Assembly: GCA_902780525.1 (NCBI GenBank)
Contig: CACZFL010000006.1
Coordinates: 96,650-160,649, forward strand
Direction of reading: 5' to 3'
DNA: 64,000 nt
Source: an uncultured bacterium
GTDB lineage: Bacteria > Cyanobacteriota > Vampirovibrionia > Gastranaerophilales > Gastranaerophilaceae
Shown piece by piece: positions 253 through 53,578 of the stretch; the stretch's first letter is position 1; the number at the start of each line of letters is the position of its first letter. The translations under genes were made by a program, and so were the position numbers. The notes under the pieces are model-generated. The model saw only the letters and a list, made by a program, of their open reading frames with translations. It was not told the DNA's origin and did not search any database.

Positions 253-1164
253 TTATTTTTTGTCAGATAAACTGTTAACAATATTTATATCTTTTTCAAA
301 CTCGCGACGAATATAATTTCTGACAGCTTTTGGGGATAAGTAGTGTTCATACAAAGCATTGAGTTCCTTAAAGGGATTTATTTTTCGGTAATTTTTTTCT
401 TTCAATGAGTCAAATACGTTAAACCAAAACAATTTTCGCAGCCCTTTTGTTATATTCCCCTGATATTCTTTGACTCTTTCGGGTGAACATTGATTATAGA
501 CATCTTCAAGGTTATCAACATGTAATCTCCCGACGTATGAAAAATTTTTAAATCTGTTAAATTTAAAAAGTGCTCTGAATTGTTTTGTGTCGTAATCCTC
601 TCCCAGTATATCGTTTATCCGCATTGAAACCAGGTTTGGTGCGTTGCCTAGCATCTCATTTTTTTTCAGAAGTTCTTCAGTTTTGTCAAGTGTTCGTCCG
701 TAGTAGGCATAATCTATTAGGACATATTTTTTATTTTTATTTTTGCTCAAATCACTTTTGCTTAAACCTTTCTGAACCAAAAATGATTTATAGGTGTCAA
801 GACTCTTTTTTGGTATATCATTAACTTCCCGCCTTCTTAAACCTGATAACGGAATTATTTTAGTATCAACTCCCATATACCCGAGTGTTTCTGCTATTGT
901 AGAAACCGAACGTCCGATTGCGATAAGAACATAATTATCTTTTCCGTACAGTTCATCAAGTTCATTTTTTACTTTTTCTGCCGCAAAGCAATTCATTTGT
1001 GCAAGCTCTTTTAATCTGGCAGGAGTTACTTTTCGTATGTACTTACGGGTTGCTCTATCGGTTTGAGCAACACTTTGAATCGTTATTTTACCGATTTTAT
1101 TTAATCTGTTATGACATTCGGATATTAAATTGGTATTTGATATTTTAGAAATTGCTGCGCTCAT
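253..1164 (-). CDS. hypothetical protein with degenerate phosphoribosyltransferase-like motifs
   Basis: 303-aa ORF. DNYVLIAIGRSVSTIAETLGYMG and KKYVLIDYAYYGRTLDKTEELL line up with the two core strands of type I PRTases (compare apt in this window: VDYVAGIESRGFIFGAALAYKLG and GDRVVVIDDLLATGGTAIAACNLI). The acidic PRPP motif is not conserved. Confidence 0.55.
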   Translation of the reverse strand: MSAAISKISNTNLISECHNRLNKIGKITIQSVAQTDRATRKYIRKVTPARLKELAQMNCFAAEKVKNELDELYGKDNYVLIAIGRSVSTIAETLGYMGVDTKIIPLSGLRRREVNDIPKKSLDTYKSFLVQKGLSKSDLSKNKNKKYVLIDYAYYGRTLDKTEELLKKNEMLGNAPNLVSMRINDILGEDYDTKQFRALFKFNRFKNFSYVGRLHVDNLEDVYNQCSPERVKEYQGNITKGLRKLFWFNVFDSLKEKNYRKINPFKELNALYEHYLSPKAVRNYIRREFEKDINIVNSLSDKK

Positions 1165-3686: not shown

Positions 3687-3833
3687 AAATCTCTCCTACT
3701 CTAACTAGACTATTTTAACATAAATATTTGTATTTCAAATTAAGAATATATAAACATTTGTAAAATTTTTTATAAATTCAGTCAAAGATTAAGAAAAATA
3801 AATCTTTATATAAACAGGAAGGTATGTGTGTAA

Positions 3834-4247
3834 ATGATAAATGCCATTAATAATATAATGAGTTCGGCTCCATACGGATATACTAATTTTCGTTCAAACA
3901 ATGAATCGCTCAAAAGACTGGATTTTCAACCAAGATTGCGCCCCCAGCCTGTTATTGATTTTTTTGAAAAAAGCGGAATAAACGGTTCAGGAAATATAGC
4001 TTCAAAAACCGAAAAGCTTTTTCCTTATGCAGAAATAAAAAAATATGCACCGAGCAAACGTGAAACTGAGCGGAATAAAGTTATAGAAAAGGAAAAAGAA
4101 CATATAGCAAAAACAGTAACCAAACGAACAGAAGAAAGCAAAAGAAAATTGCGAGCAGCAGGAGTAAACGAACGTGAATTATATAAATATATAACCATTG
4201 ACGGTCATATTAACAGCGAGGGGCAGCGTATTATAAGGGGCAATTAA
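3834..4247 (+). CDS. hypothetical basic protein (orphan)
   Basis: 137-aa ORF with AGGAAGG SD-like sequence about 10 nt upstream. Lys/Arg/Glu-rich C-terminal half. No recognisable domain. Confidence 0.6.
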   Translation: MINAINNIMSSAPYGYTNFRSNNESLKRLDFQPRLRPQPVIDFFEKSGINGSGNIASKTEKLFPYAEIKKYAPSKRETERNKVIEKEKEHIAKTVTKRTEESKRKLRAAGVNERELYKYITIDGHINSEGQRIIRGN

Positions 4248-12615: not shown

Positions 12616-13023
12616 TTATTCCTTAAAAAGAGCTTCTATATCTTTTACTGTTTTTTTACTGTTTTTATAAAACATATCTTCATACTCTTCTTCCGATAAT
12701 CTTGGAAGCGGAGTTTCTTTTACAAGTGTGTTTTTGTGATTTATTGTTGCATCTTCAAGCGCATGAAAAGCCGTAAAATAACGGCGGTCGCTTGTTAATG
12801 GTTTTCCGTCAATACAAATTTGACACCAGTATCCTATTTTATTTAGCTTTGCAAATTTTCCCGGAAGATTTTTTATATATTCAAGCATTGTATAGAGTTT
12901 TGGTAAATCATCAGCATCTTTAAATTCCAACTCTTGTATAAATTGATTTACATCATGCTTGGAAAATTTTGCTTTAAAGTTTTGTTGTCTGTTTTGTATG
13001 TTATTGATTGGTAATATTTTCAT
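12616..13023 (-). CDS. hypothetical protein (orphan)
   Basis: 135-aa ORF packed between prfA and ylxR (gaps of 15 and 2 nt). AAGGG SD-like sequence overlaps the prfA stop region. N-terminus MKILPINNIQNRQQNFKAKFSK. Confidence 0.65.
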   Translation of the reverse strand: MKILPINNIQNRQQNFKAKFSKHDVNQFIQELEFKDADDLPKLYTMLEYIKNLPGKFAKLNKIGYWCQICIDGKPLTSDRRYFTAFHALEDATINHKNTLVKETPLPRLSEEEYEDMFYKNSKKTVKDIEALFKE

Positions 13024-13038
13024 TTCTGCATTTCCCTT

Positions 13039-14121
13039 TTAACCCACTTCTGCGAGTTTTTCCAGTTTAAGTTTTTGGTCATATTCAATAAGCAGATGAA
13101 TAAGTTCATCCAAATCCCCGTCGATAACAGTCCAAACGTTAAGGTTATGGTTAATTCTGTGATCGGTTAGACGTCCCTGCGGAAAGTTATATGTTCTGAT
13201 ACGTTCGCTTCTGTCACCTGTTCCGACCTGCGAACGACGAAGATCTGTGATTTCCTGCATTTGTTTTTGGACCTCCAAATCATACAGTTTAGAACGCAAA
13301 ATCTGCATTGCTCTTTCTTTGTTCTGTAATTGTGAACGCTCTTCCGTACAGAAAATCATTATACCTGTAGGCTTGTGAAAAAGTCTTGCAGCCGTTTCAA
13401 CTTTGTTAACGTTCTGACCGCCTGCACCACCACTTCGTGCCGTTGACATTTCAATATCTTCCGGTCTGATTTCAATTTCTACATCATCTACTTCCGGCAT
13501 AACTGCAACGGTTGCGGTCGAAGTGTGTACTCTGCCCTGAGATTCCGTCTCCGGAACTCTCTGAACTCTGTGAACGCCTGATTCATATTTAAGTTGTGAA
13601 TAAACCGCATCACCCTTTATTGAAATAATAATTTCAGAATATCCTCCGGCTTCACATTCAGTTTTTGATAATATTTGAGTTTGCCAGCCTTGTTTATCTG
13701 CGTATTTAAGATACATTCTTGCCAAATCGCCTGCAAAAATGTTTGCCTCATCACCACCAGCTCCGCCTCTGATTTCAAGCATAATGTCTTTGTCATCCAT
13801 CGGATCGCGGGGAAGAAGCAGAACTTTCATTCTTTCTTCGTATTCAGGAAGCTTTGCTTCGTTTTCTTCCATCTCAGCTTTCAAAAAAGCCTTCATTTCT
13901 TCATCTTTTTCTTCATGAATTAGTTGTTTTGCTTCTTCAATTGCATCTGTTGCTTTTTTCCAGGCGTAATAGAGTTCAACTGTTTCTTCCATTGATTTTC
14001 TTTGTTTTGATAAATCACGGAATTTATTGTAATCAGCTATAACATTCGGATCAGAAAGAGTTTGTCCGAGTTCAACATACCTTTTTTCAATCTGAACGAT
14101 TTTATCTAACATATCCTTCAT
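13039..14121 (-). CDS. prfA: peptide chain release factor 1
   Basis: 360 aa. GGQ motif ([15 protein letters not shown]), RF1-type tripeptide region (PET), and full-length resemblance to RF1. Confidence 0.95.
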
Positions 14122-14206: not shown

Positions 14207-14227
14207 TTTGTAAAGTTTTGTAACAAA
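14207..14227 (+). promoter_or_regulatory. HLR1-like direct-repeat box
   Basis: TTTGTAAAGTTTTGTAACAAA. The reverse complement GTTACAAA-AC-TTTACAAA matches (G/T)TTACA(T/A)(T/A)-N2-(G/T)TTACA(T/A)(T/A). Confidence 0.55.
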
Positions 14228-14238
14228 TGCTAAAAGCG

Positions 14239-14277
14239 ATGAAATTACCTATTTTTTAAATACTTTATATATATAAG
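14239..14277 (+). promoter_or_regulatory. promoter candidate ATGAAA-N16-TACTTT followed by a conserved ATATATATAAG block
   Basis: The same layout recurs at 26941-26981 and on the minus strand at 39795-39835. It ends 28 nt upstream of the ATG at 14305. Confidence 0.5.
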
Positions 14278-14304
14278 ATGGTATTATAAGAAAGTAATTG
14301 AAAA

Positions 14305-15510
14305 ATGGTAGCAGTTAATCAAAATATATTTAGAAATGTCGGATGTACTGTACAAAGTATGTTTGATCCTAATACTTCAACAGAATCAAAAATACAAAGC
14401 GGTATAAACGGATTAACAAGCGTATTTTTTGCATTGGGTGGTGATGATGCCGAAGCAGAAGCAAATGCAGCCGTAAGAGAAAATGAAGAGATAAACAATA
14501 ATTTGAATGCTTCACTTCAAACACAGTCAGAAGCTAATAAAAATGCTATTCAGTCTATTATAGATCAAATTAATGAAAATCAGAAAAAAATTACAGAGAT
14601 TTTGGAACAGATAAACGGCTTAGAAGAAGAAAAAAATAAAATAAACAAAGAAGTTGAATTACATCAGGAAGAAATACAAAAACAAAAAGATACATATGAA
14701 AATGCAACAACCCCGGAAGAAAGACGAAAAGCTCTTGATGCAATAAGCAACGAAAATGCTGCGGTTCAGGAACTTTTAGGCAGAGTTCAAACTCTTAGCA
14801 ATCAACAAACTGAGCTGAATGAACAAACAGAAGAAGCAGAATCAGTAAATGCAGATTTGCAAGTACAAGCAGATGATACAAAAGCAGAAGGTGAGAGCAA
14901 AATACAAACTATACAGCAGCAAGCTGTCGCTAATAAAGCTCAGGTAACCGGAAAACTTGCAGCTCAAGAAACAAAATATGTAGCAAAAGCAGCTGAATAT
15001 ATGGCTAAAGCAATTGCATCAAAAACATCAGGATTTTTCTCCAGTGTATGTACATTTGGCTTGGGCGGTGTAGCAGGAGATATGGCAGCTGAAAAATATA
15101 TGCAGCTTTCACTAAATAATACTGCAGCCGCAGGAATAATCAGCAGTGGAGTTCCGCAAATATTATCTACAATAGGTAATGTTTTTGACGGTACAAATGT
15201 AAATTTAGGTTTTCTGACAAATACATCTTCTTATATTGGAAGTTTAACTTCCGCAGCAAACGGTGATGTAGAAGCATTTTTTGGAATTTCAAATTCACTT
15301 GGCAGTCAACTTGGTGACAGCTTGCAAAGCTGGACGGAAACTTCTGAAAATATTGATAATGCAATTGAAGTAGGTAATCAAGAAGAAACAAATGTAACAG
15401 GCAATGATAATAAAGATGACTCCAATGGCGATGTTACCGTAAGTAACGATAATAATGAAGAAAAGAAAAAATTTAATGCAGAGCCTGATTTTAATGTTCA
15501 AATGGTATAA
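14305..15510 (+). CDS. hypothetical coiled-coil protein with Gly/Ala-rich hydrophobic segments
   Basis: 401 aa. About 170 aa of Gln/Glu/Asn-rich heptad-like sequence, then GFFSSVCTFGLGGVAGDMAA and AAAGIISSGVPQILSTIG hydrophobic stretches, then an acidic Asn/Asp-rich tail. Confidence 0.7.
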   Translation: MVAVNQNIFRNVGCTVQSMFDPNTSTESKIQSGINGLTSVFFALGGDDAEAEANAAVRENEEINNNLNASLQTQSEANKNAIQSIIDQINENQKKITEILEQINGLEEEKNKINKEVELHQEEIQKQKDTYENATTPEERRKALDAISNENAAVQELLGRVQTLSNQQTELNEQTEEAESVNADLQVQADDTKAEGESKIQTIQQQAVANKAQVTGKLAAQETKYVAKAAEYMAKAIASKTSGFFSSVCTFGLGGVAGDMAAEKYMQLSLNNTAAAGIISSGVPQILSTIGNVFDGTNVNLGFLTNTSSYIGSLTSAANGDVEAFFGISNSLGSQLGDSLQSWTETSENIDNAIEVGNQEETNVTGNDNKDDSNGDVTVSNDNNEEKKKFNAEPDFNVQMV

Positions 15511-20699: not shown

Positions 20700-20813
20700 A
20701 TGGAATTTTTCAGAGAACATAAAAAACTTATTATCGGGATTATAACAATATCATTTATAGTATGGACGGTCGGTCTTGGCTTACTGATGTTAATGGCACC
20801 GGTTGGTAATTAA
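20700..20813 (+). CDS. small membrane peptide (37 aa), hypothetical
   Basis: Not in the track (under 60 aa). TAAGAGGTG SD 4-5 nt upstream of the ATG. MEFFREHKKLIIGIITISFIVWTVGLGLLMLMAPVGN has a basic N-terminus and one TM helix. Its stop lies 3 nt before the M23 peptidase ORF. Confidence 0.45.
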   Translation: MEFFREHKKLIIGIITISFIVWTVGLGLLMLMAPVGN

Positions 20814-26908: not shown

Positions 26909-26929
26909 TTTGTAAATTTTTGTAACAAA
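26909..26929 (+). promoter_or_regulatory. HLR1-like direct-repeat box
   Basis: TTTGTAAATTTTTGTAACAAA. Reverse complement is GTTACAAA-AA-TTTACAAA. Confidence 0.55.
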
Positions 26930-26974
26930 ATTAAAGAGTTTTGAAATTTTAGAGATTAAATATACTTTATATAT

Positions 26975-27098
26975 ATGTAAGACATAAACAAAGAAACATA
27001 ACACAACCTTTCATACAACCTACACACTAACCTTCTACACATGAGGAATTATTAAAAAAAGATTCCAAAACCTAATCACAGAGATTAGGTTTTTTTTT
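26975..27098 (+). ncRNA. candidate small RNA (CA-rich, about 120 nt), no ORF
   Basis: TTGAAA (26941)-N16-TACTTT (26963) promoter module, about 90 nt of G-poor C/A-rich sequence, then a strong terminator AACCTAATC-ACAGA-GATTAGGTT plus T8 (27069-27098). The longest ORF is 4 codons. The 5' end is estimated only. Confidence 0.45.
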
Positions 27099-33685: not shown

Positions 33686-34234
33686 TTAAAATAAATTACT
33701 AAAGAAATTTACTACTTTTTCACCAAATTTTTCTAAATCGCTTTTTGTATTTTCATGCAATTCTTTTTGTTCCTGAGCTTTTTTGTCTGCATTCTTTTGT
33801 TGTATTCTTTTGCTAACCTCTGCTTCCTGCCTGTCTACTTCTTTTTGAGAAGCTGCAAATTCCTCTTCGCTCATATATGGCACAATAGCTGTTTTATTTG
33901 CAAGTGCTTTAAACGGGTTCCCTCCATTTAATGCTTCTATAGATTTAGAAGAAGCTCCGTTATTTTTGTATTTTGCTGCTAATTCAGTTGTATTATTATA
34001 TATAAAATTATGGTTTTTCTGTATTGTAACAGTATTTGCTGAAGATTGTTTTATATTACTAAAATCAAAATTATACCCTGTTTCTTTTTTTACCAATGAT
34101 TTAAAAAGCTCAATCTCTTTGCCATCAATCATACCATTGTTGTTGCCGCCGTTTTTGGTATCTTGGTCAACTTTTTGTGCATAAGCTCTTAAATTACCTG
34201 TAAACATAGAATGTGTGTAACCAATTTCTGTCAT
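33686..34234 (-). CDS. hypothetical protein (orphan) with an EF-hand-like loop
   Basis: 182 aa. AAGGAG SD upstream. GGNNNGMIDGKE approximates a 12-residue Ca-binding loop. Lys/Glu/Gln-rich C-terminal half. Confidence 0.65.
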   Translation of the reverse strand: MTEIGYTHSMFTGNLRAYAQKVDQDTKNGGNNNGMIDGKEIELFKSLVKKETGYNFDFSNIKQSSANTVTIQKNHNFIYNNTTELAAKYKNNGASSKSIEALNGGNPFKALANKTAIVPYMSEEEFAASQKEVDRQEAEVSKRIQQKNADKKAQEQKELHENTKSDLEKFGEKVVNFFSNLF

Positions 34235-34271
34235 TAGTATTTCTCCTTATAAATATCCTCTATGTATATAT

Positions 34272-34319
34272 AAAGTATTTCACGAAGAAATAATTGACAT
34301 GTTTGTAAAGAAATGTAAC
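34272..34319 (-). promoter_or_regulatory. promoter module (TACTTT -10-like with ATATATA block) plus HLR1-like box
   Basis: Minus strand reads GTTACATT-TC-TTTACAAA (34319-34302), then ATGTCA-N17-TACTTTATATATAC (34300-34264). Confidence 0.45.
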
Positions 34320-36233: not shown

Positions 36234-36252
36234 GTTACAAAAAATTTACAAA
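36234..36252 (-). promoter_or_regulatory. HLR1-like box with 3-nt spacer
   Basis: GTTACAAA-AAA-TTTACAAA on the plus strand, 59 nt upstream of the GGDEF/HD-GYP gene start. Confidence 0.4.
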
Positions 36253-36409
36253 TCTAATTTTCTTCTAAGTACCCCTATTAATTACATGCTAACATTTTTT
36301 AAGGTTTTTTCCACCCTGAAACTCTTATAATTTTACAAATGTTTATAATTTGTGTAATATGTACACCAATTATTTTAATAAATCTACTCTTTTTTATCCC
36401 TGTTATCGG

Positions 36410-39658: not shown

Positions 39659-39794
39659 AATACCTCACTTTACTCTCGGCTTGCCGCCAAAAGTGTTTTT
39701 CTTACTTGTATTTAATTGTTCATTGAAAAACTGACGGGTTGTATTGCCCGTTGTTTTTTGTTTGATTTTTACTCTCTTAAGTTTTTAATTTCGA

Positions 39795-39867
39795 CTTACA
39801 TATATATAAAGTATATATAACTTTTTGAATTTCAAACCTCTCTTGTTTTGTTACAAATCTTAACAAT
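39795..39867 (-). promoter_or_regulatory. HLR1-like box plus TTGAAA-N16-TACTTT-ATATATATGTAAG promoter module
   Basis: Plus strand has GTTACAAA-TC-TTAACAAT at 39850-39867. The minus strand has TTGAAA (39835-39830), TACTTT (39813-39808), then ATATATATGTAAG. Confidence 0.5.
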
Positions 39868-39932: not shown

Positions 39933-39951
39933 ATTGTAAAGAATTGTAAAT
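39933..39951 (+). promoter_or_regulatory. HLR1-like direct-repeat box
   Basis: ATTGTAAAGAATTGTAAAT. Reverse complement is TTTACAAT-TC-TTTACAAT. Confidence 0.5.
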
Positions 39952-39967
39952 AATATTCAAAAAATCC

Positions 39968-39994
39968 TAAAGTTTTCAGAATTTGTGCCGATAT
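39968..39994 (+). promoter_or_regulatory. sigma-28 (FliA/SigD)-type promoter candidate
   Basis: TAAA-N15-GCCGATAT matches the TAAA-N15-GCCGATAA consensus. It ends 28 nt upstream of the ATG at 40023. Confidence 0.5.
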
Positions 39995-40022
39995 ACATTA
40001 TATATATAAGCAGAGGTGTGTC

Positions 40023-40490
40023 ATGTCTAACTTCACTGTAAACGGAGTATATTCTTATACAAGTGCGAATATCTACTCTTATCTGGGTAGATTACCGACC
40101 AACAATGCTGCTTTAAAAGAAGCATTCAGGGAATTTGGTATTGCTCCTACAGGAAAAGAATCTGACTTAAAAAGACTTGAAAATGCGATGTACCGTGAGT
40201 ATTCAGAGCAGGTAAGAGAGCAAATCGATAACCAAAACTCTGAAAAAAATAATGTACCGTGGGCAGGAATACTTGCGCAGATAGGTATTCAGCCAACAGG
40301 TGATTATGACACGGATTATCAGGCATTTAACAATGCAATTCAGCTTCTGAGTCAGAGTGCAATTGATGGTCAGGCTATGGCATACTTTGCAGGACTGAGA
40401 AGCGAAGCACAAAGTGCTTTTGCTTCTTATTCTCCGTCGGATCAACAGGTACAAACTTTCTTCGATTATAAAGTTCAACATCTTTCATAA
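40023..40490 (+). CDS. hypothetical protein with two GIxPTG repeats (HeH/SAP-like)
   Basis: 155 aa. AGAGGTG SD. Internal repeat FGIAPTGKESDLKRLENAM / IGIQPTGDYDTDYQAFNNAI. Confidence 0.65.
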   Translation: MSNFTVNGVYSYTSANIYSYLGRLPTNNAALKEAFREFGIAPTGKESDLKRLENAMYREYSEQVREQIDNQNSEKNNVPWAGILAQIGIQPTGDYDTDYQAFNNAIQLLSQSAIDGQAMAYFAGLRSEAQSAFASYSPSDQQVQTFFDYKVQHLS

Positions 40491-46613: not shown

Positions 46614-46631
46614 ATTGTAACAAAATGTTAA
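46614..46631 (+). promoter_or_regulatory. HLR1-like box (one mismatch)
   Basis: ATTGTAACAAAATGTTAA. Reverse complement is TTAACATT-TT-GTTACAAT. About 100 nt upstream of speD. Confidence 0.35.
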
Positions 46632-46733: not shown

Positions 46734-47210
46734 ATGGAGGCACATGAATTGACAATTGTATCATCATCACTCAGAGAGCTTGAGACTCATTCTAATTTAG
46801 ACACTGTTAATTTAGGTCAACACGTTCTTGCAGAATTTTTTGAATGTGATTCTAATATATTAAATAATATAGATAAAGTAGAAAAGTATATGATAGATGC
46901 AGCTTTAGAGTGTGGTGCGACAATCGTTCAAAAATGTTTCCATATGTTTAACCCCTATGGTGTATCAGGTGTGGTAATTATATCGGAAAGCCACTTGGCT
47001 ATTCATACCTGGCCGGAACTCGGTTACGCAGCAGTTGATTTGTTCACCTGCGGTACAAAATGCGACCCGAAGGTTGCTTATGAGTTCCTTAAAAAAGTAT
47101 TTAACTCAAAGAAAGCTTCTTTTACAGAACTTAAACGCGGTATTATCGACCGTGAAACTCTGAAACTTTCAGAACAACCGTTTGAGGTTGCAGAACAATT
47201 TGAAGAATAG
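46734..47210 (+). CDS. speD: S-adenosylmethionine decarboxylase proenzyme (pyruvoyl, SpeD/SpeH type)
   Basis: 158 aa. VSGVVIISESHLAIHTWPE self-processing site and the TCG motif. The N-terminus is about 25 aa longer than I recall for Bacillus SpeD. Confidence 0.88.
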   Translation: MEAHELTIVSSSLRELETHSNLDTVNLGQHVLAEFFECDSNILNNIDKVEKYMIDAALECGATIVQKCFHMFNPYGVSGVVIISESHLAIHTWPELGYAAVDLFTCGTKCDPKVAYEFLKKVFNSKKASFTELKRGIIDRETLKLSEQPFEVAEQFEE

Positions 47211-48832: not shown

Positions 48833-48920
48833 AATACCGTTACAAACCTTAATGAATAAGGCAATTTTTAAGTAGTTAAATACTTTATATCTATATATCA
48901 GAAAAACATAAGGAATTATT

Positions 48921-50105
48921 ATGATTAATTTTGACGGCATTTATTCAAATAGAATGACTCAGAATGTGTTTCAGTCCGCTAAAGGTTCTGAAAATGATGA
49001 CAAAAAAGATTTGCAAACCAGTCCGGCAGAAGAGTTATCTAATACAAATGATGTTACTCCGGCAGAAACCTCTAAACCGTATGAAAATATGGGATTAAGA
49101 CTTTCGGGAACACGAAGTGAAGCTACGGCAAAAAGAGAAGTCAGTCCCGAGTTTCAGGAAGCTATTGATTTTTACAATAACAGTATGACCTCGTCCCAGC
49201 GTCATTCTGTTACCAATCAGGCAGAAAATAATATCATAGCTGCATTAAGTAAAATGGAGCAGGATATAAATATGGCATACATTGAATGTGCGGCATATAA
49301 AGACCCTAATATTATGGTAGTCGTTCACTCTCCGTACAGGCATTATATTTACCCGCGCTGGCATGACAGACTTTTAAACTTTGATATTGATGCTCTCAGA
49401 AAACAAACAACAGAAGATATGGATTCCCTGAATGACATAAGGGATAAAATGGAATACATAATGGAAGCGGCAAACGGAGATCCGGAACACTATACTCCTC
49501 CGAAAAAAGAATATGATGTTGATAAGATTGCCGAAGAATACCTGCAAATGAGTTATGAAGATTTTGCAGCAAAATATCCGACAGAGCTTGAAAAATGCAA
49601 ATATGTTACTCTTGCTGATGTAGGAAATATGACTGAAACAGAGGCTTATGTGTACGGAAGAGCAAAAGCCTATGCTGCGGCAATGCTTGATATAACAACA
49701 AATGATGCCCACAATACTCACTGGGATATTCAGGAACGTAAATTGTATGAGGCTCTTGCAGCAAGTGATGCTATATTTGCGTTATCAGAGTTTGAGTATG
49801 ACGGAATTACTCCTGAAGGGCTTGCAAGTATAGAAAGTCCAATTGCATACAATGCTTTTGAAACGGCATTAATAGAAAAATATCAACCTCTGAAGCCGGA
49901 AGAACCAACAACCCCTGATGTTCCGCCACCGGATGATAATAACGATAATCCTGATGACGGAAATGATGATACCGAAACATCAATACAGAATACCGAAACT
50001 TCAAATGTGCAGCAAAAACCTGTAAAACGTGTTGTTAACGGTGCTGTTTTAATTTTTAATCCTGACGGAACGGTATATAATGTGTACGGACAAAGAATTA
50101 AATAG
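48921..50105 (+). CDS. hypothetical protein (orphan) with acidic Pro/Asp/Asn-rich C-terminal linker
   Basis: 394 aa. TAAGGAAT SD-like sequence. No recognisable domain. PEEPTTPDVPPPDDNNDNPDDGNDD linker before the last 40 aa. Confidence 0.7.
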   Translation: MINFDGIYSNRMTQNVFQSAKGSENDDKKDLQTSPAEELSNTNDVTPAETSKPYENMGLRLSGTRSEATAKREVSPEFQEAIDFYNNSMTSSQRHSVTNQAENNIIAALSKMEQDINMAYIECAAYKDPNIMVVVHSPYRHYIYPRWHDRLLNFDIDALRKQTTEDMDSLNDIRDKMEYIMEAANGDPEHYTPPKKEYDVDKIAEEYLQMSYEDFAAKYPTELEKCKYVTLADVGNMTETEAYVYGRAKAYAAAMLDITTNDAHNTHWDIQERKLYEALAASDAIFALSEFEYDGITPEGLASIESPIAYNAFETALIEKYQPLKPEEPTTPDVPPPDDNNDNPDDGNDDTETSIQNTETSNVQQKPVKRVVNGAVLIFNPDGTVYNVYGQRIK

Positions 50106-50208: not shown

Positions 50209-50565
50209 ATGAATAATATAACACCCATATCTTCTGTATCATTTAGCGGACTCGCAGTTTACGGCACAGTTTCCGGTAAAAACGTGAAAAAACTTGGCGA
50301 CTTTGCTTCCAGAGTCGAAAATATAAATTTTATAAATGACCTTGAAAAATATTTTGAAGTTGATGCTGTTTTGGATAACGAGATTACCAAAATGAGTTTT
50401 GTACATAAAAAATTCGGAGATTTATCAGGAAGATTCGGATGCAGCTCATATCCTCTTGAAAATGTTTTCAGAGATGTAACTGAAGTTATCAAAGATATCA
50501 AATCAGCCATAAAAAGAGCAGAAAAAAACAGCGATAAATGTGCTGTTGAAAAACGAGGCTGCTAA
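50209..50565 (+). CDS. hypothetical protein (orphan)
   Basis: 118 aa. AGGCAGG SD-like sequence upstream. N-terminus MNNITPISSVSFSGL. Confidence 0.6.
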   Translation: MNNITPISSVSFSGLAVYGTVSGKNVKKLGDFASRVENINFINDLEKYFEVDAVLDNEITKMSFVHKKFGDLSGRFGCSSYPLENVFRDVTEVIKDIKSAIKRAEKNSDKCAVEKRGC

Positions 50566-53040: not shown

Positions 53041-53535
53041 ATGGAAAACGAAAAGTACAGGTTAAGCATAGCTGATATTGAAGATGAAGAAATTTTAGAG
53101 TTCGATTTTGATGACGATATCAAAGAACTTGAAGATTGTCATGTTTCTGCAGAGCTGGATTTTTACTCTATGGGAGATTTTATTGAGGCAAAAGGACATG
53201 TTGAAGGAAAAGTTACACTTGAATGTGACAGATGCTTGAATAAATTTGTTCAGGATTTGGACTTTGATATAGATGAAACTTTTGCAAAAAAATCTTTGCT
53301 TGATGAATACGGACAAGAGGTAGAACTCTCTAACGGTCAGTTTGTAACTGATTTAGACGGTGCAGAAGAAATTGATGTTTATGACCTTTTGTATCAATCT
53401 GTAATATTAGCTTTACCAAACAAAAAGGTTTGTGGTATAAATTGTAATGAGGGATTATTTGTATCAACTGATGAAATAAAAACTCACGACACCAGAATGG
53501 ATGTTTTCAAAAATATCCAAATAAAGGGAAAGTAA
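53041..53535 (+). CDS. yceD: YceD/DUF177 family protein
   Basis: The track ORF starts at 52969. The ATG at 53041 (MENEKYRL) avoids overlap with the upstream ORF. CDRCL motif, a C-terminal Cys motif, and the classic position upstream of rpmF. Confidence 0.8.
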   Translation: MENEKYRLSIADIEDEEILEFDFDDDIKELEDCHVSAELDFYSMGDFIEAKGHVEGKVTLECDRCLNKFVQDLDFDIDETFAKKSLLDEYGQEVELSNGQFVTDLDGAEEIDVYDLLYQSVILALPNKKVCGINCNEGLFVSTDEIKTHDTRMDVFKNIQIKGK

Positions 53536-53578
53536 TTAACCCGATAATATAAGTAGTAAAAAGAAAGGTATAAGGAAA

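Follow-up and report, generated by a model that had tools for sequence, protein, structure and literature searches.

The window analysed here, a stretch of 64 kb, comes from Gastranaerophilales, an order of non-photosynthetic Melainabacteria within the Cyanobacteriota/Melainabacteria clade. Besides housekeeping genes it carries those for AdhE and a trimeric FeFe hydrogenase, and neither photosynthesis genes nor a response regulator were found within its 64 kb; the hydrogenase and AdhE agree with the first-pass annotation, which had described the window as fermentative and devoid of photosynthesis genes. Just to the right of the window, L130:1-9650 contains a run of small genes without annotation and an SU10-type portal protein; this block is probably a prophage. 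The Gastranaerophilales are uncultured, and to our knowledge nothing is known of their transcription regulation. The subject of this study is a short tandem repeat in the intergenic spacers that fits the HLR1 element of cyanobacteria (5'-KTTACAWW-N2-KTTACAWW-3'), which the response regulator RpaB reads on either strand, activating from positions -66 to -45 and repressing from -38 to +23. Published Synechocystis HLR1 sites such as TAACAAAACTTTATAA and TTACAATCGTTTACAA are near-identical to the boxes of the window.

Exact matches to the consensus KTTACAWWNNKTTACAWW (KTTACAWW-N2-KTTACAWW) lie at 14207-14224, 26909-26926, 34302-34319 and 39933-39950, all on the minus strand, and boxes with one mismatch lie at 39850-39867 (+) and 46614-46631 (-). 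The box at 36234-36252 has a 3-nt spacer, and that at 48839-48856 departs from HLR1 at three positions. These are the seven HLR1-type sites and the half-quality copy listed in the first-pass annotation; our rescan recovered every one of them at its reported position and added two one-mismatch boxes, at 3747-3764 and 36332-36349, to give totals of four exact matches and eight with at most one mismatch. At most sites the HLR1 repeat lies on the strand opposite to transcription, an orientation that had earlier been marked 'rc' without discussion.

The boxes are far from randomly distributed. Intergenic DNA makes up 9.6% of the window and holds all four exact matches, all eight with at most one mismatch and 18 of the 22 with at most two; shuffling of the whole window gave no exact match in 100 trials. 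When the spacers alone were scanned, the cumulative counts for zero, at most one and at most two mismatches were 4, 8 and 17, against expectations of 0.007, 0.12 and 2.3 from 300 dinucleotide-preserving shuffles of the same spacers, in none of which the observed counts were reached. The boxes are thus a non-random direct repeat that has a 10-bp period, agrees with HLR1 and is conserved, and none of the three outcomes that the first-pass annotation had named as refuting it was observed.

At five sites the boxes are not free-standing, but form the upstream part of a larger conserved cassette with fixed distances: box, N15, TGAAATT or GCAATT, N13, ATACTTTATATATA and then a pyrimidine-purine step. 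The second element, ATACTTTATATATA, is common to six sites in the window (four exact copies and two with one mismatch), and no further copy was found elsewhere in the window's intergenic DNA. Sites A (14207), B (26909) and D (39850) share a base-identical layout of TTTGTAAnnnTTTGTAAC, N15, TGAAATT, N13, ATACTTTATATATA and T(G/A)TAAG. The 15 nt between TGTAAC and TGAAATT accord with the earlier statement that the box stands some 10-15 bp upstream of a -35-like hexamer, in an activator-like position. Sites C (34302) and F (48839) carry the core with GT(T/A)AC in the same place, their repeat reads along transcription, and their -35-like element is G(T/G)CAATT.

At site A, on the plus strand, the box (14207-14224; TTTGTAAAGTTTTGTAAC in the direction of transcription, with the HLR1 consensus on the opposite strand) occupies cassette coordinates -12 to 5, and the core promoter at 14240-14279 consists of TGAAATT (14240-14246), N13, ATACTTTATATATA (14260-14273) and TAAGAT; the full-cassette position weight matrix (PWM) scores 62 bits. 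The predicted start at about 14275 precedes an orphan gene at 14305-15510 (401 aa, with no Pfam domain). The complete plus-strand cassette of site B (26909-26981; 72 bits) has its box at 26909-26926, TGAAATT at 26942-26948 and ATACTTTATATATA at 26962-26975, followed by TGTAAG. Site D, a complete cassette on the minus strand (39795-39867), has the top score in the window at 73 bits, with its box at 39867 to 39850 (ATTGTTAAGATTTGTAAC), TGAAATT at 39834 to 39828 and ATACTTTATATATA at 39814 to 39801, again followed by TGTAAG. Site C, on the minus strand (34259-34319; 11.5 bits), combines a forward HLR1 box running from 34319 to 34302 (GTTACATTTCTTTACAAA) with GTCAATT at 34298 to 34292 and ATACTTTATATATA at 34278 to 34265, upstream of an orphan gene at 34234 to 33686 (182 aa). 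Site F, a plus-strand cassette of the GCAATT class (48839-48899; 22 bits with a core-only PWM), has a degenerate forward box at 48839-48856, GGCAATT at 48860-48866 and ATACTTTATATCTA at 48880-48893, upstream of an orphan gene at 48921-50105 (394 aa).

The remaining boxes have other surroundings. Site E (39933-40012, +) is a hybrid in which the box at 39933-39950 is followed by a sigma-28-like TAAA-N15-GCCGATAT (39968-39994), to which the cassette's 3' half, ATACATTATATATATAAG, is fused at 39993-40010; the gap is 42 nt instead of the usual 35, so that the box lies 7 nt further out, and the target is an orphan gene at 40023-40490 (155 aa). The box at 36234-36252 (-), which reads TTTGTAAATTTTTTGTAAC in the gene direction, lies upstream of a GGDEF + HD-GYP gene (36175 to 34334), where the core resembles the cassette only in degenerate form and the full PWM gives -17. 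The box at 46614-46631 reads TGTAAC-N4-TGTTAA (one mismatch) in the direction of the plus-strand gene speD (46734-47210), about 100 nt upstream of it, and the full-cassette PWM finds no canonical core there. Over the whole window this matrix places D, B and A at 62-73 bits, gives positive scores to C and F, and scores everything else at or below zero; since it does not support the boxes at 36234 and 46614, we assign these to other promoter contexts.

The orphan proteins downstream of the cassettes (401, 182, 155 and 394 aa) have no Pfam match at the curated cut-off, in line with the earlier remark that no function could be recognised for the downstream genes. As the five window orphans are not similar to one another, paralogy is rejected as the source of the promoter likeness: the promoters did not come to resemble each other through gene duplication. 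Four other orphans of the window (253-1164, 3834-4247, 12616-13023 and 50209-50565) have similar N-termini (MSAAISKISN, MINAINNI, MKILPINNI and MNNITPISS), possibly a common targeting or secretion signal. In the 10 kb added on each side of the window, neither a further cassette nor a regulator was found.

A scan of one genome per species with the pattern TGTWAC-N35-ATACTTTATATATA located the cassette in at least 120 places, and with metagenomes included it occurs in at least 240 places overall, of which those with a name are nearly all Gastranaerophilales. Among the 80 matches listed, 51 are titled Gastranaerophilales, Gastranaerophilaceae, Melainabacteria, 'Cyanobacteria bacterium' or Ca. Limenecus, 26 are gut or rumen metagenome-assembled genomes (MAGs) without a lineage name, and three stand under other names, probably through mis-binning. 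Perfect cassettes lie on MAG contigs titled Gammaproteobacteria, Clostridium sp. and Muribaculaceae (L013, L021 and L036), which probably stem from Gastranaerophilales and were mis-binned.

With the T of TGTAAC as coordinate 0, the distal half-site T(G/a)TWAA begins at -10 and the proximal TGTAAC at 0, and together they form the reverse complement of HLR1 from -12 to 5; the -35-like element occupies 21-27 and tAT-ATACTTTATATATA 38-54. At the unselected positions of 120 sites conservation is block-wise, with unconserved spacers between the blocks: T-10, T-8, A-6 and A-5; A6 and A7; T21, G22, A/C23, A24, A25, T26 and T27; and T38 and A39. Position 55, inside T(G/A)TAAG, is a pyrimidine and position 56 a purine in 100% of these sites. 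Selection for TGTWAC could bias the apparent conservation of the box, and the scan was therefore repeated on metagenomes without it. The pattern TGAAATT-N13-ATACTTTATATATA alone returned 112 unique sites, of which 36 have a perfect HLR1 match, 22 have one mismatch and 28 have two; these 86 (77%) all lie at exactly -12 to 5 on the strand opposite to transcription, with no competing offset or orientation. Across 146 cassettes the half-sites begin at -10 and 0, again with a 10-bp period, and the core is TGAAATT in 95 (65%) and GCAATT in 28 (19%), some repeats of the latter class being oriented forward. The TGTAAG at coordinates 55-60 (26976-26981 in the window) itself resembles a box half-site, and TGTWAV is found there in 60 of the 146 cassettes; it might be a second, start-proximal contact of the same protein.

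Box and cassette are kept together in front of orthologues of the site A gene (L020, L043, L050 and L089) and of the site C gene (L095:4612-5175), and at eight loci homologous to the small RNA (sRNA) of site B; the boxes are conserved in the orthologous promoters of more than 100 related species. An origin of the sites as copies of a mobile or repetitive element, or by chance in AT-rich spacers, draws what credit it has from the close similarity of the copies and the AT-richness of the intergenic DNA. The shuffled spacers yield 0.007 exact matches against the four observed, the segments between the blocks are unconserved and flanking repeats are absent, each copy faces a gene or an sRNA at a fixed short distance, and orthologous genes retain the cassette across species. 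We regard this origin as effectively refuted by the shuffles, the unconserved spacers and the conservation among orthologues, and its residual probability as negligible.

Two observations identify the cassette as a promoter. At the loci of the genome scan the start codons of open reading frames of at least 30 aa mostly fall 20-40 nt past the core, and the remaining cassettes are followed by terminator hairpins about 75-140 nt downstream; start codons or intrinsic terminators at such distances therefore mark it as a site of transcription initiation. The Y55/R56 pair, the leader lengths and the 5' limits of sRNA conservation together place the start near coordinate 56, and the purine at 56 is the probable first nucleotide. 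Measured from it, the box would lie at about -68 to -51, and that of the forward class at about -56 to -38, positions that appear compatible with the activating window of RpaB.

The core itself is unusual. A sigma-70 consensus scan (TTGACA-N16-18-TATAAT) detects no promoter at site B, which would be expected of a core that depends on an activator; the best sigma-70-like fit, TTGAAA-N16-TACTTT, is weak, and the TATACT at 40-45 has no -35 partner. Near-invariance over 14-20 bp is odd for a plain -10 element and may mean that a dedicated sigma factor or a second protein is involved. Sigma-28 (TAAA-N15-GCCGATAA) was considered and rejected, as the standard cassette lacks both elements; they occur at 15-nt spacing only in the hybrid site E (39968-39994) and at a flagellin gene outside the window. 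This gene lies just to the left of the window and is preceded by a canonical TAAA-N15-ACCGATAA, not by a cassette (L127 ~13680-13715, -). It indicates a flagellated organism with the canonical FliA consensus, and hence that the cassette is not a sigma-28 promoter. The looser pattern TAAA-N14-16-CCGATAW occurs three times in the window against 0.25 expected, at 20731-20757 (-), 39968-39994 (+) and 53522-53547 (+), in front of a 722-aa orphan, the 155-aa orphan of site E and the gene for L32.

The box also occurs apart from the cassette. In 1.70 Mb of DNA from the lineage, 26 of the 124 exact HLR1 matches lie outside any cassette. In three species a nadD-like gene with a CTP_transf_like domain (L061:3474-4061, L228:10142-10729 and L238:3610-4197) is preceded by an exact forward box, 12 nt and an extended -10 element (TGnTAnnAT), and here the box behaves as an independent protein-binding module. 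This extended -10 ends 7 nt before the ATG, which makes the mRNA nearly leaderless, and the box could possibly occupy a repressing or class II position.

These findings bear on the proposal that no activator is involved and that RNA polymerase with a dedicated alternative sigma factor reads the whole 75-bp cassette, the box serving as an UP-like or extended upstream element. Such a factor would account for the extreme conservation of a non-consensus core, for the rigid geometry and for the failure of the sigma-70 scan to recognise the cassette. It accounts poorly for a box that is found in both orientations and in two registers relative to the core, that has an invariant G and C, unlike UP elements, and that also accompanies a sigma-28-type core at site E and an ordinary extended -10 at nadD in three species; nor can the factor be sigma-28, whose usual consensus is seen at the flagellin gene. 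The combination of one box with three types of core (cassette, site E and nadD) argues for a separate DNA-binding protein over direct reading by a single sigma factor, and we consider the latter quite improbable.

The regulon downstream of the cassette consists of sRNAs and lineage-specific orphan proteins. Site B drives a transcript at 26977-27098 (+) that contains the invariant core ACACACUAACCUU and ends in an intrinsic terminator (27067-27093) with a T run behind it. It belongs to a family of nine members, the others being at L008, L072, L085, L098, L108, L109, L115 and L125; these RNAs, of about 105-140 nt, combine single-stranded ACACACUAACCUU, an GAGGAAUU/AAUUCC hairpin and a terminator whose pairing is kept by compensatory changes. 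Site D drives a short sRNA candidate of about 74 nt (39799 to 39726, -), with a terminator hairpin at 39751 to 39734 and a T run; it shares its spacer with the orphan gene 40023-40490, from which it diverges. Neither window transcript contains an open reading frame. A second sRNA family, with no copy in the window, occurs at about 20 loci (for example L024, L032, L087, L093, L100, L107 and L116) and consists of CAUUAAAUAAACACGAGAGAUAUUAAG ... UUCCUAUUCCUACCUUCCUAA and a terminator; its CU-rich stretch looks like an anti-Shine-Dalgarno seed. An Rfam 15 scan at gathering score assigned the cassette sRNAs to no known RNA family and returned only two tRNAs in the window, and both families appear to be new.

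Of the 67 cassette-driven proteins scanned, which come from many species, a single one has a credible Pfam domain, in a reading frame that begins about 100 nt past the core; a PHROGs search of the cassette-driven proteins gave scattered coiled-coil-type matches and nothing coherent. The most common reading frame behind the cassette, left out of this set of 67 and absent from the window, encodes a family of 53-56 aa (MAVANLKKIDDKLK...VT(V/T)N...QMNFIAMANKQALHLI; L016, L018, L026, L028, L033 and some 27 further loci).

The question of which protein binds the box centres on the OmpR/PhoB family, of which tandem direct repeats with a 10-bp period are a hallmark. The GTTACA core is also the half-site of E. 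coli OmpR, where it is read by a recognition helix of the ISRLR type; such a helix is present in RpaB, whose recognition helix is DTRVVDVHISRLR, and absent in RpaA. Three papers report homologues of RpaB, RpaA and NblS in Melainabacteria, and according to the supplement of the 2013 paper every gut melainabacterial genome has a single RpaB, two RpaA and a single NblS. Our literature search found no paper tying HLR1 to melainabacterial targets.

No RpaB was found in about 1.7 Mb of related loci, where the single OmpR-type regulator is RpaA-like, and protein searches for a Gastranaerophilales RpaB returned only cyanobacterial and plastid proteins. An RpaB query 93% identical to real RpaBs retrieved cyanobacteria only, and an exhaustive search of representatives with Gloeobacter RpaB yielded AT-rich candidates. 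Two of these (P0452 and P0352) are plastid by gene context (rbcLS, psaF, ycf4 and rpoB) and a third (P0121) proved to be a paralogue from cyanobacteria; L031 and L039 have response regulators of the NarL type. That all AT-rich RpaB-like candidates followed up are plastid Ycf27 or cyanobacterial paralogues suggests that the RpaB of this lineage is less conserved than Ycf27.

An OmpR-type regulator is encoded directly upstream of a cassette on one metagenome contig (L176:958-1680, -). Its recognition helix, ETIRVHIRHLR, is that of S. elongatus RpaA, to which it is 50% identical without gaps; its identity to Gloeobacter RpaB is 37%, and it scores 206 bits against the NCBIfam RpaB cut-off of 330. 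This RpaA-like protein is probably an RpaA homologue, seen directly in the lineage. RpaA binds TAAA-N7-TTAA, a head-to-tail tandem repeat immediately before the -35 element, and from there recruits RNA polymerase (PMC12916501); Piechura 2017 gives no motif for it. Binding of the box by one of the lineage's two RpaA-like regulators, with the same architecture and mode of recruitment, therefore deserves consideration: the gut genomes have two RpaA homologues, the protein with this helix lies on a cassette-bearing contig, a tandem head-to-tail repeat upstream of -35 from which polymerase is recruited is what RpaA is known to use, and read along transcription the box contains TAAA-N6-TAAC. However, the repeat has the 10-bp period of HLR1 rather than one of 11 bp; its conserved GTTACA/TGTAAC is the HLR1 core and the half-site of the helix type that RpaA lacks; and the box stands 15 bp off the -35-like element, which the RpaA repeat at PkaiBC abuts. 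The period, the core and this distance make RpaB the better fit, and we hold an RpaA-like binder to be improbable.

A third candidate is an unrelated or lineage-specific factor that recognises a GTTACA repeat and whose site resembles HLR1 by convergence. The motif is short and AT-rich, the RpaB of the lineage is absent from the sequences retrieved by our searches, and there is no functional overlap with the cyanobacterial RpaB regulon. Convergence would nevertheless have had to reproduce an 18-position consensus with its spacing in the sister lineage of its only known users, perfectly in 32% and to within two mismatches in 77% of the box-free set, and with the 10-bp tandem repeats typical of OmpR/PhoB regulators in a lineage whose few published members of that family are RpaA- and RpaB-like. 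We consider such an origin unlikely, while giving it some weight.

We propose that the boxes are binding sites for an activator, placed as the upstream module in a conserved, phase-locked promoter some 75 bp long that is specific to Gastranaerophilales, a reading to which we assign a probability of roughly 0.55. A head-to-tail dimer of an OmpR/PhoB-family response regulator, most probably the reported RpaB homologue of the lineage and presumably under an NblS-like kinase, would occupy both half-sites at about -68 to -51 from the start. It would recruit RNA polymerase, probably through the alpha C-terminal domain in a class I-like manner, to a core that departs too much from the sigma-70 consensus for efficient firing on its own; we infer activation rather than repression. 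Two features fit RpaB less well: the HLR1 repeat of the main class reads against transcription, and its centre, predicted at about -59.5, would lie nearly one helical turn upstream of the -51 peak of Synechocystis. An HLR1/RpaB-like activator site is likely on the present evidence: the sequence, its period and position, the phylogenetic setting and the published work on the regulator agree with it. From the first-pass annotation's picture of an HLR1/RpaB-like regulon re-used for lineage-specific proteins, the box, its spacing and its position stand, and RpaB is retained as the probable binder; 're-use' is one possible polarity, and the ancestral role could equally have been non-photosynthetic.

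We know the output of NblS-RpaB, through HLR1, only as a master switch of photosynthesis and light acclimation. That this output predates photosynthesis, or has been fully rewired, and here drives, from a rigid promoter, a large regulon composed nearly entirely of lineage-specific orphan proteins and of sRNAs with CU-rich stretches like an anti-Shine-Dalgarno is a tentative idea, which we rate at somewhat less than even odds. If it is true, the cassette is a ready-made readout of NblS-RpaB sensing in a fermentative gut bacterium. If RpaB binds, the question raised in 2013 as to the role of RpaA, RpaB and NblS in the absence of photosynthesis becomes directly testable, and the answer would bear on whether cyanobacteria and plastids took over their light-redox regulator from an older circuit for stress or redox. 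The cassette defines by sequence a lineage-wide regulon of at least 240 sites, among them two sRNA families not reported before and dozens of families of orphan proteins, within which co-regulated genes of unknown function can be grouped. It is also a practical marker of the lineage that flags MAG contigs filed under other names.

The architecture can be compared with three known systems. Proteobacterial OmpR (at ompF and ompC) and PhoB (at pho boxes) act by class I activation from tandem repeats about one helical turn apart, upstream of a weak -35 element. The cassette shares the tandem repeats upstream of a weak -35, and the OmpR half-site contains GTTACA; it belongs to another phylum and has a single dimer site where those promoters have three adjacent sites, and the pho box differs further in its 11-bp period and in replacing the -35 element. 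The RpaA complex at PkaiBC (Nat Struct Mol Biol 2026, PMC12916501) is relevant in that an RpaA-like protein is present in the lineage, but the RpaA repeat, TAAA-N7-TTAA, has an 11-bp period and abuts the -35, whereas the cassette has a period of 10 bp, a TGTAAC core and 15 bp to its -35-like element. With the HLR1/RpaB regulon of Synechocystis 6803 and S. elongatus 7942 the differences lie in the targets, which for the cassette are orphan proteins and new sRNAs and not photosynthesis genes, in the locking of the box to a near-invariant core that has not been described in cyanobacteria, and in the predicted centre near -59.5 instead of the -51 peak. The two systems share two imperfect octamers, (G/T)TTACA(T/A)(T/A), set 2 nt apart, the use of either strand, an upstream position, which is predicted for the cassette and gives activation in cyanobacteria (-66 to -45), sRNAs among the targets (PsrR1 in Synechocystis), and an NblS kinase and its regulator reported in the same wider clade.
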